This document shows, in pieces, positions 35,415 to 39,747 of a DNA stretch of 64,000 nt. Numbering within the stretch: the stretch's first letter is position 1; the number at the start of each line of letters is the position of its first letter. Location: assembly GCA_964434945.1 (NCBI GenBank), contig CAYSWZ010000017.1:4305-68304 (forward strand). Reading direction: 5' to 3'. The translations under genes were made by a program, and so were the position numbers. This DNA is from an uncultured bacterium. GTDB taxonomy: Bacteria; Eisenbacteria; RBG-16-71-46. The notes under the pieces were generated by a model, which was not told where the DNA came from, ran no database searches, and worked only from the letters and a program-made list of their open reading frames with translations.

Positions 35415-35927
35415 ATGCGCATCGTCCTCTTCCGACACGCCCCCGCCGAGCCGCGCGACCCCGAGCGCTGGTCCGACGACCTCTTGCGCCCGCTGACCTC
35501 GCGCGGCGAAGTGCGTGCGCGCCGTGCCGTCCGCGGCATCGTGATGCTCGAGCCCGGGCTCCGGCGCGTGCTGACCAGCCCCGCGATCCGCGCCCTCAAG
35601 ACGGCGGAGATCCTGGCCGGCGAGCTGACGACGCCCACCAAGGTGCAGGAGCTGCCGTCGCTCGCCCCGGGCGGATCGTGGCGCGAGACGCTGCGAGCGC
35701 TCGCCCGGGAGCCGATCAACACCGTGGTCGCCCTCGTTGGCCACGAGCCCGACCTGAGCGAGCTCGCCAGCGCGCTCCAGTTCGGGGCGCCGGCCGCGGT
35801 GCCGCTCCGGAAGGCGGGCGCGTGCGCCATCGAGATGGAGGCGCTCGAGCCGGCCGCCGGCCAGCTGCGCTGGTTCCTCGGACCGGGAGCGCTGCGCTCG
35901 TTGGCGAAGAAGCGGAGCAAGGCGTGA
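35415..35927 (+). CDS. sixA: SixA-type phosphohistidine phosphatase
   Basis: MRIVLFRHAPAE (RHG-type catalytic His) and VALVGHEPDLSEL. ATG at 35415. Confidence 0.8.
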   Translation: MRIVLFRHAPAEPRDPERWSDDLLRPLTSRGEVRARRAVRGIVMLEPGLRRVLTSPAIRALKTAEILAGELTTPTKVQELPSLAPGGSWRETLRALAREPINTVVALVGHEPDLSELASALQFGAPAAVPLRKAGACAIEMEALEPAAGQLRWFLGPGALRSLAKKRSKA

Positions 35928-36652
35928 ACCCCACGTCCGACTTCGGGCACCAGCCGAGTCCCTATCCGGGCAAGCTCGTGATCGTCGAGGGGATCGACGG
36001 CTCGGGGAAGAGCACGCAGCTCGGCCTGCTCGCGCAGTGGCTGCGCGGCGAGGGGCACCTGGTGATCTTCAGCGAATGGAACTCGTCGCCGATCGTGCGC
36101 GCCACGACGTCGCGCGGGAAGCGGCGGCAATTGCTCACCCCGCTCACGTTCTCGCTCATCCACGCCACCGACTTCTCCGACCGCGTCGAGCGCGACATCG
36201 TGCCCGCCCTCAAGGCGGGCGCGATCGTGCTCGCCGACCGCTACGTGTACACGGCGTTCGCGCGCGACGCGGCGCGCGGCGTGGATCGGGACTGGGTGCG
36301 CTCGCTCTACCGTTTCGCCGTCGTGCCGACGCTGGCGGTGTACTACCGCGTGCCGCTCGAGGTGGCACTGCATCGCATCCTGTCTGGCCGGCCGAAGCTC
36401 AAGTGGTACGAGGCCGGCATGGACCTGGGGTTGAGCCTCGATCCGACCGAGAGCTACCGGCTCTTCCAGGCCCGCATCCAGCAGGAGTACGAGCGCATCG
36501 TGGCGGAGTACGGGCTCGCCTCCATGGACGCGACGCAGCCGGTCGAGGTGCAGCAACGTGCGCTGCGCGAGCTGGTGCGCCCGCACCTCGTCGGCATCGC
36601 ACGCGATCCGCGCGGCGAATCGCCCGAGATCCGCGAGGGCCGGCGGGCATGA
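35924..36652 (+). CDS. Thymidylate-kinase-fold P-loop kinase, paralog 1 (non-canonical)
   Basis: GTGA overlap with sixA. P-loop VEGIDGSGKSTQ and a DRY motif (LADRYVYTAFA). The canonical REPGG-type dTMP-binding segment is not seen. Confidence 0.75.
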   Translation: MNPTSDFGHQPSPYPGKLVIVEGIDGSGKSTQLGLLAQWLRGEGHLVIFSEWNSSPIVRATTSRGKRRQLLTPLTFSLIHATDFSDRVERDIVPALKAGAIVLADRYVYTAFARDAARGVDRDWVRSLYRFAVVPTLAVYYRVPLEVALHRILSGRPKLKWYEAGMDLGLSLDPTESYRLFQARIQQEYERIVAEYGLASMDATQPVEVQQRALRELVRPHLVGIARDPRGESPEIREGRRA

Positions 36653-37356: not shown

Positions 37357-38225
37357 ACCACGCGGGCGCCGCGGCAGCCGCCGCGCGCCTTCGCGAGCGC
37401 CTGGCGGCCGTCACCACCGCCGCCGCGCCGGACGGTGGGGGAGAGCCGGGGCCCGCGGCCGGGGACACGCAGCTCCACGACCTGCGCGTGGCGTGCCGCC
37501 GGCTCGAGACCGCGCTCCGAATGTGGGCGCGCGGCGCCGACGCACGCGAGGCGCGCCGGTACACGCGGGCGCTGCGGCGGGCGGGCGGCCCCGCGCGCGA
37601 ACGCGAGGTGCTCTCCTCGCTCCTGCGCACCCGCCGACTCGGCGCCGCCGCTGTGCCCTCCGGGCTGCGGGCGAAATGGCTCGAGCGACTCGCGCGCGGG
37701 GCGGACGCCGCGCGGCGCAGCGCGTTCCCGGGCCCGCGTGCGGTGAAACGGCTCGCGGCCCGGGTCGAGCGGGTGGTGCAGGCGCTCGAGCCCGATGCGG
37801 AGATCGCGGCGCGGGCGGACCGCCGGCTGGCGCGCTGGCGGCGCTCGGGCCTGTCGCGACTCTCCGCGGGGCTCGCGAGCGGGGAAGCCCGGGCGCTCCA
37901 TCGCGCCCGGCTCGCCGTCAAGCGCTGGCGCTACGCCGAGGAAGAACGAGCAGCTTTCGCGAAGGTGGAGGTGCCGCGGGCGGCGGAGGCTCGCCGGCCG
38001 CCGGAGCGCGCGGGGAAGCCGGTCGCTTCCTTGCGCCGTTGGCAGCGCTTGCTGGGTGAGCTGAGCGATCGCGCGCTCCTGATCGCGTACGCGCGCTCGT
38101 CGGGGGCGCAGGGTCGGCGGCTCGTCCCGCGCCTCGAGGCGCTGCGGCTCGCGGCGGTGGCGGGGATCCGCCGGCCTCCCGACGCGCCGGTCTCGAAACC
38201 GCACGTTCGCGGGCGGCGGGCATGA
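37353..38225 (+). CDS. CHAD-domain protein
   Basis: GTGA overlap with the upstream gene. Motifs LHDLRVACRRLETALR, LHRARLAVKRWRYAEE, LRRWQRLLGELSDRALL. Confidence 0.75.
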   Translation: MNHAGAAAAAARLRERLAAVTTAAAPDGGGEPGPAAGDTQLHDLRVACRRLETALRMWARGADAREARRYTRALRRAGGPAREREVLSSLLRTRRLGAAAVPSGLRAKWLERLARGADAARRSAFPGPRAVKRLAARVERVVQALEPDAEIAARADRRLARWRRSGLSRLSAGLASGEARALHRARLAVKRWRYAEEERAAFAKVEVPRAAEARRPPERAGKPVASLRRWQRLLGELSDRALLIAYARSSGAQGRRLVPRLEALRLAAVAGIRRPPDAPVSKPHVRGRRA

Positions 38226-39747
38226 CGGTCACCGCGCGGCCGGCGAGTCGCGCCAGGTCCGTTGCGCGCCGCCGCCCCGCCCACAGCTCGAGCTGCGCGT
38301 GCCGGCCCGCCTCCACGACGATGACGGAGGTGTCGCCGCGCTGGCGCACGCGCAGGTCGCGCACCAGCTGGTAGTGGCTGCGGTCGAGTCCCTCGGCCAC
38401 CCGCAACATCGCCGAGAGCCAGCGCACGGCGCGGCGCGCGCGCTTCGGCAGTGCGGCGTACACGTCGTCGCGCCGGCGTCGCGGCCGCGAACCGCCGTGA
38501 TGGCGCGCGATCGAGGCGACGATGTCGATCTCCTCGGCGGTCAGGCCGCGCAGGCCGCCGTTGCGGACGATGTACGCGGAATGCTGTGCGTGGCCGTCGT
38601 AAGCGACGGCCGAGCCCAGGTCGTGGAGCAGTGCGGCGAAGTGGAGCCATTCGCGCTCGCTCGCCCCGAGCTTGTGCCAGCGCTCGAACTCGTCGAACAG
38701 CCGGAGCGACAGCGCGGCCACGTGCCGCGCGTGGCCGCCGTCGGCGTTGAAGCGCGCGAGCAGGCCGAGCACGCTCCGCATGCGCAGGTCGCCGGCGGCC
38801 TCGAGCGAGGACAGCTCCTGCGCGTGTCGCCGGATCCAGTCGGTGACGAGGCCCTCGCGCACGCCGTAGTCCGAGAGCGTGATCGAGCGCGCGCCCGACA
38901 ACCGCAGCACCTGCTCGAGCACGATCGCGCCCGGCACCAGGATCTCGGCACGCGCCGCGTCGATGCCCGGGAGCCCCTGGCGCTCGTCGTGCGGCATGCC
39001 CTCGAGCTGCCGGGTGAGCTCGGCCAGTGCGGATAGCTCCAGCACGTGGCCGTTGATCTGGGGCAGCGCCCGGCCGTAGTCCGCCCAGTGCGCGAGTCCC
39101 GCCAGCGCGTGGATCGAGCCCGACGAGCCGTACACCACCTCGGGGGCGGGATCCCCCAGCGTCTCGAGCGCGCCGCGGAGCTCCTTGCGCACGTGGCGGC
39201 GGAGCGCCTCCAGTTCGCGCTCGGACGGCGGGTCGTGATCGAGCCGCGTCTCCGTGAGCCGCAGCGCTCCGAGCGGCACGCCGGCCACGCGCAGCAGCTC
39301 GCGGCCGCGTACGTGCACGAGCTGAACGCTGCCGCCGCCGATGTCCACGATCAGGGCCGGGCGCGAGTCGAGCTGCAGCGCCGCCTGGACCGCGAGGTGG
39401 ATGAGGCGGCCCTCCTCCTCGTTGGGAATGACGCGCGGCGAGATGCCGGACTCGTCCCGGGCCAGGCGCAGGAAGTCGCCGCCGTTGCGGGCCTCGCGCA
39501 CGGCCGCGGTGGCCGTGCACAGGATGCGATCCACGGCGTGCCGGCGCGCGAGCTGGACGAAGCGCCGCAGTGCCGCCGCGGTGCGGCGCATCGCGTCGCC
39601 GCGCAGGCGGCCGTCCCGGAACGAGCCGCGGCCGACCTGCACCACCTCGCGCTCGCGGTCGAGCACCGCGAACGCCTCGCCGACGGTGGCGTCGGCGATG
39701 ACCATGTGGATCGAGTTGGTGCCGATGTCGATGGCGGCGATGCGCAC
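37918..39747 (-). CDS. ppx: Exopolyphosphatase / guanosine pentaphosphate phosphohydrolase (Ppx/GppA) with an HD domain and a roughly 100 aa low-complexity tail
   Basis: GTG start at 39747. RIAAIDIGTNSIHMVIAD, DIGGGSVQL, HD region LLHDLG. The recognisable protein ends near coordinate 38230, and the ORF then runs on to 37918. Confidence 0.9.
   Translation of the reverse strand: MRIAAIDIGTNSIHMVIADATVGEAFAVLDREREVVQVGRGSFRDGRLRGDAMRRTAAALRRFVQLARRHAVDRILCTATAAVREARNGGDFLRLARDESGISPRVIPNEEEGRLIHLAVQAALQLDSRPALIVDIGGGSVQLVHVRGRELLRVAGVPLGALRLTETRLDHDPPSERELEALRRHVRKELRGALETLGDPAPEVVYGSSGSIHALAGLAHWADYGRALPQINGHVLELSALAELTRQLEGMPHDERQGLPGIDAARAEILVPGAIVLEQVLRLSGARSITLSDYGVREGLVTDWIRRHAQELSSLEAAGDLRMRSVLGLLARFNADGGHARHVAALSLRLFDEFERWHKLGASEREWLHFAALLHDLGSAVAYDGHAQHSAYIVRNGGLRGLTAEEIDIVASIARHHGGSRPRRRRDDVYAALPKRARRAVRWLSAMLRVAEGLDRSHYQLVRDLRVRQRGDTSVIVVEAGRHAQLELWAGRRRATDLARLAGRAVTVMPAARERAVSRPARREAGGSPPPPRAAAPRGAGRAADPAPPTSARTRSGARDRSAHPASAANGARKRPASPRAPAAGEPPPPAAPPPSRKLLVLPRRSASA

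Follow-up and report, generated by a model that had tools for sequence, protein, structure and literature searches.

The closest described system to the locus analysed here is PPK3, a two-subunit polyphosphate kinase of Sulfolobus acidocaldarius (Hofmann et al., Journal of Biological Chemistry 2026, PMC12995831; preprint bioRxiv 10.1101/2024.08.28.610084, 2024). Its operon carries sixA (saci_2017), ppx (saci_2018), two genes for ‘thymidylate kinases’ (saci_2019 and saci_2020) and a CHAD gene (saci_2021) (PMC12995831). Catalysis is carried out by Saci_2019 (cPPK3); Saci_2020 (rPPK3) is inactive alone and acts as the activating subunit, and together they form an alpha2beta2 reversible polyphosphate (polyP):ADP phosphotransferase (PMC12995831). 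Neither protein has dTMP kinase activity, the real Tmk being saci_0893, and the authors predicted PPK3 operons in bacteria from phylogeny and from neighbourhoods with PPX, SixA, CHAD and PstS/C (PMC12995831). We analysed a 64,000-nt stretch of contig CAYSWZ010000017.1 (the window) from an uncultured bacterium of Candidatus Eisenbacteria, in which a sixA-like gene, two paralogous thymidylate-kinase-fold (Tmk-fold) genes and a CHAD gene converge on ppx. This locus is a new bacterial member of the published PPK3 system. What it adds to that work is modest: complementarity of PPK1 and PPK3 in Eisenbacteria, a partner subunit whose lesion differs, and a candidate operator common to the phosphate cluster.

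Because the G+C content of the window is high (∼70%), most of its long open reading frames (ORFs) are spurious. The five frames of the locus were nevertheless open and stop-free on translation: the sixA-like histidine phosphatase gene (35415-35927, plus strand), which is the first gene of the operon; the two Tmk-fold genes, whose products we refer to as P0002 (35924-36652, plus) and P0003 (36649-37356, plus); the CHAD gene (37353-38225, plus); and ppx (37918-39747, minus). Four-nucleotide start/stop overlaps were read in the sequence at 35924 (GTGA), 36649 (ATGA) and 37353 (GTGA), and therefore sixA, P0002, P0003 and CHAD are translationally coupled. The SixA-like product matched PF00300 (His_Phos_1), scored 68.5 bits against TIGR00249 (cut-off 74.5), showed RHA and GHEP motifs in its translation, and was 28% identical to Saci_2017 by BLASTP (E 3e-17). 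P0002 and P0003 matched PF02223 with 73.7 and 76.3 bits, and both are labelled ‘dTMP kinase’ in databases. The CHAD protein (PF05235, 45.9 bits) is a predicted polyP binder and the counterpart of Saci_2021; BLASTP found no match between it and the Sulfolobus CHAD protein, the pair being too diverged. Ppx, an exopolyphosphatase with Ppx-GppA and domain III/HD regions (PF02541, 187.6 bits; PF21447, 89.9; TIGR03706, 256), matched its Sulfolobus counterpart with an E value of 6e-33. Thus, the gene content, overlaps and convergence on ppx that a sequence-only reading of this stretch had described were all borne out by translations, family matches and junctions. The five gene families are those of the saci_2017-2021 operon, with the c paralog preceding the r paralog, and the c-r-CHAD overlaps occur in both organisms. 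In Sulfolobus, however, ppx lies between sixA and the cPPK3 gene, whereas here it is convergent and on the opposite strand.

The sequence-only reading had gone on to propose that the two paralogs form a hetero-oligomeric Tmk-fold phosphotransferase working with polyP rather than a housekeeping dTMP kinase, and had suggested a search for a canonical tmk, a phylogeny and a survey of the CHAD/ppx linkage. With the assayed subunit Saci_2019, P0002 has 51% identity (192 bits), and it scored 190.8 bits against the cPPK3 homologue STK_15430 of Sulfurisphaera tokodaii (PDB 2plr, 4nzy, 4rzx and 5h70) versus ∼57 bits against the best canonical Tmk. STK_15430 was the best PDB sequence match of P0003 as well (128.6 bits against 2plr); the deposition calls it a dTMP kinase, and the solved structure is that of the homomeric catalytic subunit only. 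P0003 shares 30% identity with Saci_2020 (91.7 bits, E 2e-27) and 36% with P0002. An AlphaFold2 model of P0003 (mean predicted local distance difference test score 84.5) found 5h70 as its closest PDB structure (TM 0.80/0.90, root-mean-square deviation 2.2 Å), with canonical Tmks next. Against the dTMP-kinase equivalog model TIGR00041, P0002 scored 80.9 and P0003 79.7 bits, both just below the cut-off of 83.25.

A canonical tmk is encoded away from the locus, at C123:13945-14508 (PF02223, 150 bits), complete with GEGSGKST, REPGG and DRY motifs. Maximum-likelihood trees were built from diverse representatives of a 1.84-billion-protein library together with this canonical Tmk, two PDB Tmks and the PPK3 proteins. 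In these trees the canonical Tmks, including the genome’s own, were split from both paralogs with supports of 100/100. P0002 grouped with Saci_2019 and STK_15430 in a c-clade in which every readable member has the Walker A lysine, and P0003 grouped with Saci_2020 in a sister r-clade (93/87) in which the corresponding residue is mostly Arg or Cys. We therefore consider it very probable that P0002 is a cPPK3, that P0003 is an rPPK3-type partner, and that the locus is a bacterial PPK3 polyphosphate module, in line with the polyP-linked phosphotransferase that the sequence-only reading had anticipated. A fourth PF02223 match in the genome (C70:15547-16017) has the appearance of a deoxynucleoside-kinase-type P-loop protein (LVIEGVIGAGKTSL) and was set aside as unrelated to the pair.

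The two subunits differ in the residues that matter for catalysis. P0002 has an intact Walker A motif (GIDGSGKST), while in P0003 (GTDGVGRTT) the lysine is replaced by arginine; DRY is kept in both. The paralogs’ shared W-E-x-G-M-D motif (KWYEAGMD and DYWESGMD) and the replacement of the REPGG segment of canonical Tmk, by SEWNSSP in one and AETGFTRS in the other, were as first described, and the comparison with the genome’s canonical Tmk agreed. We compared residue columns, as sequence columns rather than as a surface calculation, across 24 c-clade and 34 r-clade proteins. Common to both clades are the P-loop glycines and Asp, the DRY motif, and arginine at P0002 positions 114, 118 and 151. 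Basic residues at P0002 positions R59, R67 and R68, in the segment that replaces the dTMP site of Tmk, are confined to the c-clade, as are R156 and K160 of the lid; P0003 lacks these c-specific residues. The published work found the basic polyP cleft to be conserved in cPPK3 only (PMC12995831), and the c-only basic residues match this; P0002 is therefore the predicted catalytic subunit. Since P0003 lacks the Walker lysine, the basic lid and the basic patch, it is most likely a non-catalytic activator or scaffold, which would activate P0002 through oligomerisation. Of the proposed kinase pair, then, the part concerning P0002 stands, and P0003 is most likely a partner rather than a second active kinase.

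The partner subunit appears to have degenerated by different routes in different lineages. In Sulfolobus, the inactivity of rPPK3 was explained by replacement of the DRX arginine (PMC12995831). P0003 does not carry this replacement: DRY is kept in 112 of its 120 close homologues and in most r-clade representatives, and it is the Walker A Lys to Arg change that is found in all 120, most r-clade representatives having Arg and some Cys. Saci_2020 shows the reverse, having kept the GK (GIMSSGKTT) and lost the P-loop Asp-Gly, with DGY in place of DRY. These opposite lesions indicate that the partners degenerated differently in bacteria and in Sulfolobales. We read the loss of the DRX arginine as a feature of Sulfolobales rather than a family-defining one, and judging from its retained residues the bacterial partner could still bind nucleotide. 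Four proteins of the representative library, P0246 (460 aa), P0298, P0356 and P0362 (359 aa), span 359-471 aa and combine c-type and r-type motifs in one chain. If real, such c-r fusions would be Rosetta-stone evidence for an interaction between the subunits; they may be frameshift or gene-calling artefacts, and we gave them no weight.

Linkage of the module was surveyed in 28 related loci, which are close relatives found from a single-protein query and mostly from Eisenbacteria. The sixA-c-r-(CHAD)-ppx linkage was kept in 28/28 of these loci wherever the contig reaches, and so is not due to chance; the association with CHAD and ppx on which the earlier proposal leaned is thus conserved. Where CHAD is found in relatives, it sits downstream of the r-subunit gene, and dnaA and phoBR occur at equal relative positions in many of the loci. 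The kinase subunits are 70–90% identical across the set (72–90% for P0003), about the conservation level of DnaA, and the other products are less conserved (SixA 42–71%, CHAD 34–64%, Ppx 52–75%).

In order to place the module within the phylum, we scored a sample of 201 genomes of Candidatus Eisenbacteria, calling PPK3 at E <= 1e-30. PPK3 was present in 74 and PPK1 in 49. The two occurred together in a single genome (G179, 66% complete), versus ∼18 expected if they were independent, a contrast that is inflated by relatedness among the genomes. At least two matches were found in 70 of the 74 PPK3-positive genomes, with c and r adjacent where both were listed. The alternation recurs within families, splitting 8 versus 1 of 9 in family f2, 4 versus 3 of 8 in f4, where different genera are involved, and 3 versus 2 of 12 in f10. 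Moreover, ppk1 adjoins sixA and ppx in two of four PPK1-bearing relatives examined, which fits the in situ replacement of PPK1 by PPK3 proposed previously (PMC12995831). The frequency of PPK3 in the phylum and its near-perfect exclusivity with PPK1 likewise support such a replacement.

Close-homologue searches returned at least 8000 candidates for each subunit, and in a representative library clustered at 50% identity 206 representatives reached E <= 1e-30; breadth beyond the phylum was judged from source names and from this library. Source names of the homologues include Eisenbacteria, Methylomirabilota, Acidoferrales, Verrucomicrobiota, Chthoniobacterales and Nitrososphaera. According to the published description PPK3 is mostly an archaeal enzyme, found in addition in ‘a few taxonomically scattered bacteria’ (PMC12995831); our data point to a distribution in bacteria wider than these few.

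Several observations pull against this assignment. The biochemistry of PPK3 is that of the Sulfolobus enzyme, and the activity and complex of the bacterial pair are predicted from it by analogy. In the trees the c-clade is supported at only 87/72, and because the branch leading to Saci_2020 is very long (3.83), its grouping with P0003 is less secure than the supports imply. Since P0003 keeps the DRY arginine, the lesion named for rPPK3, its inactivity has to be deduced from its other losses. A domain search found no PPK1 in the genome contigs, which make up a metagenome-assembled genome that is only 86% complete. Finally, the genome has two PPK2 genes (PF03976; C125:19590-20267 and C79:11326-12000, 308 and 240 bits), and PPK3 is therefore not its sole polyP-nucleotide route; this sets the host apart from most PPK3 hosts, which lack both PPK1 and PPK2 (PMC12995831).

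Two other explanations of the pair were weighed. One holds that P0002 and P0003 are an ATP-dependent (deoxy)nucleotide kinase, acting for example on a modified or salvage nucleotide, with no tie to polyP, and that their position beside CHAD and ppx is mere phosphate-regulon neighbourhood. Pfam and NCBIfam do assign the pair to the dTMP kinase family, with scores just below the equivalog cut-off, and the S. tokodaii homologue carries the deposited name ‘dTMP kinase’. However, although the pair shares the P-loop kinase fold, DRY motif and lid of canonical Tmk, both proteins have other sequence in place of the dTMP-binding REPGG segment, they fall in a separate clade, and the genome has a canonical tmk besides. 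The orthologue Saci_2019 has polyphosphate kinase activity and no dTMP kinase activity (PMC12995831). Also against this explanation are the translational coupling to sixA and CHAD, which goes beyond proximity, an arrangement conserved from Eisenbacteria to Sulfolobus, and a distribution complementary to that of PPK1. We consider a nucleotide kinase unconnected with polyP to be very improbable.

The other explanation accepts a polyP enzyme and supposes that both subunits handle nucleotide, P0003 either binding ATP/ADP without turnover as an allosteric sensor of energy charge or catalysing a second step, such as polyP-dependent conversion of NMP to NDP, which would make the pair an enzyme with two activities. 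Its appeal lies in what P0003 has kept, namely DRY, the P-loop Gly/Asp/Thr framework and the equivalents of R119, R123 and R156 that it has in common with the catalytic clade, and in the nature of the Lys to Arg change, which is conservative and fixed across the r-clade (120/120 close homologues). P0003 is also as conserved within the phylum as the catalytic subunit, far more so than SixA, CHAD or Ppx, but tight contact with that subunit could explain this equally well. Against this explanation, replacement of the Walker A lysine by arginine normally abolishes phosphotransfer in P-loop kinases, and P0003 has lost the basic residues of lid and cleft. The sole assayed homologue, Saci_2020, is inactive alone (PMC12995831). 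A nucleotide-handling P0003 of either kind is improbable, if less so than a pair unconnected with polyP, and we favour a catalytic cPPK3 with a non-catalytic partner.

For such a PPK3 module, the following mechanism can be proposed. By analogy with the alpha2beta2 enzyme of S. acidocaldarius, P0002 and P0003 would form a hetero-oligomer that reversibly transfers the terminal phosphate between ATP/ADP and polyP, making polyP when the ATP/ADP ratio is high and regenerating ATP from polyP when it is low. P0002, with its P-loop lysine, DRY arginine, basic lid and basic patch at the position where Tmk binds dTMP, would carry out the transfer, the patch being the likely polyP site, and P0003 would activate and scaffold, most likely without catalysis. 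A similar division of labour is seen in two-domain class II PPK2 (P. aeruginosa PA3455), in which an active P-loop kinase unit is joined to an inactive paralogous unit that promotes oligomerisation (PMC12995831). The same analogy extends to a preference for polyP-dependent nucleotide phosphorylation (PMC12995831); class II PPK2 differs in belonging to family PF03976 and in having both units fused in one chain. The CHAD protein may tether or mark the polyP granule, Ppx would degrade polyP to inorganic phosphate, and SixA would be a conserved phosphatase partner. The convergent ppx may share a transcript with the upstream GNAT gene. In this lineage, the PPK3 module may fill the role of the missing PPK1.

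The module probably belongs to the Pho regulon encoded alongside it. A 10-mer, TTCCGGCAAC, occurs as an exact match at 35317-35326 (plus), ∼98 nt before the ATG start codon of sixA. Copies with one mismatch are found in the divergent region between the GNAT gene and phoB (40739-40748) and, in inverted orientation to each other, ahead of the porin-pst unit (44009-44018, plus, and 44049-44058, minus). There were 10 matches to the motif in the window versus 3.4 expected, a number that none of 100 shuffles reached. In 10 related loci it lies at −95 to −109 relative to sixA, and in 4 it precedes phoB, at −88 to −92. This placement and conservation suggest joint regulation of the PPK3 operon and the Pho genes, and we propose the 10-mer as a candidate shared Pho-type operator of the Candidatus Eisenbacteria phosphate cluster. 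Between this 10-mer and sixA, ∼40 nt from the 10-mer, is a conserved TGCTA(A/G)G(C/G)T, which looks like an extended −10 element; a scan of 34300-41000 for consensus sigma-70 promoters and terminators found nothing.

A second repeat was considered in the same region. Between phoR and the porin-like gene there is a tandem 11-bp direct repeat, GGAAACACGCC GGTAACACGCG, at 43606-43626, whose spacing would suit a predicted binding site of the OmpR/PhoB family. Its GGWAACACGC form is no more frequent in the window than expected (6 matches versus 6.8). The looser GWAAC-N6-GWAAC is enriched (8 versus 1.7 expected), with a cluster at 43350-44037; we rejected it as a shared Pho box, as its clustering is confined to the stretch between phoR and the porin-like gene and does not extend to the region upstream of sixA.

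The neighbouring genes were confirmed by Pfam, as listed in the sequence-only reading, except that the porin-like gene, whose product has a signal peptide, gave no Pfam match. Immediately upstream of ppx and on the same strand is a GNAT acetyltransferase gene (39812-40701, minus), whose matches to PF00583, PF13508 and DUF4081 fall in the C-terminal 240 residues of the ORF at 39812-41509. Then follow, all on the plus strand, a phoB-like response regulator gene (40805-41521; Response_reg and Trans_reg_C, its start preceded by GGAGGA), a phoR-like histidine kinase gene (41518-43278; HAMP, PAS, HisKA and HATPase_c), the gene for a porin-like exported protein (44146-45258; signal peptide, no Pfam match), pstS (45285-46334; PBP_like_2), pstC (∼46364-47365; BPD_transp_1), pstA (47343-48221; BPD_transp_1), pstB (48218-49090; ABC_tran) and phoU (49158-49841; PhoU). 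Between phoR and the porin-like gene there is also an Arg-rich ORF of ∼102 codons (43688-43995, plus; METPDPIGMEP...RRRARQNAAR), and the overlapping frames tested there gave no Pfam match.

On its other side the operon is preceded by gyrA, gyrB, dnaN and dnaA, all on the minus strand. The sole gene between dnaA and the PPK3 operon encodes a small outer membrane protein beta-barrel (34326-35013, minus), and dnaA is ∼1.4 kb from the operon (region 32477-35013). Proximity to dnaA and the adjoining phoBR-pstSCAB-phoU genes distinguish this locus from the one in Sulfolobus. The order dnaA, outer membrane protein, sixA-PPK3 is retained in many related Eisenbacteria loci, so that the polyP module adjoins the replication-origin gene cluster.

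The ppx frame extends ∼100 codons beyond its recognisable domains (37918-38226), antisense to the 3′ end of CHAD. Where the two overlap, the CHAD frame still has the signature of coding sequence, with G+C of 0.82/0.61/0.84 at codon positions 1/2/3, and third-position G+C of the ppx tail is 0.61 versus 0.95 in the ppx core. Because of this low value, the Pro/Ala/Arg-rich C-terminal tail of Ppx looks like unselected read-through for want of a stop codon. The overlap is present in several related loci and absent in others.

The ‘dTMP kinase’ labels carried by both subunits mean that polyphosphate metabolism is mis-annotated in Candidatus Eisenbacteria, Acidobacteriota, Methylomirabilota and Verrucomicrobiota, which are soil lineages, and the idea that PPK3 replaces PPK1 matters for the phosphorus cycle of soils. 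That bacterial partners have degenerated in another way provides a concrete, testable point on how the enzyme is regulated. Going further, we speculate that the bacterial partner is a nucleotide-binding allosteric sensor rather than a dead scaffold, that archaeal rPPK3 is a further-degenerated special case, and that PPK3 is a main polyP synthase of several soil phyla. Taken as a whole this is doubtful; for the sensor it draws on the fixed Walker Lys to Arg/Cys change, the intact DRY and nucleotide-contact residues, and the 72–90% conservation across the phylum. If true, the sensor subunit would set the direction of the reaction, polyP synthesis versus breakdown, by energy charge, and, given the near-exclusive distribution of PPK1 and PPK3, PPK3 would rank among the main producers of polyP in several abundant soil phyla, rather than as an enzyme of ‘a few bacteria’.

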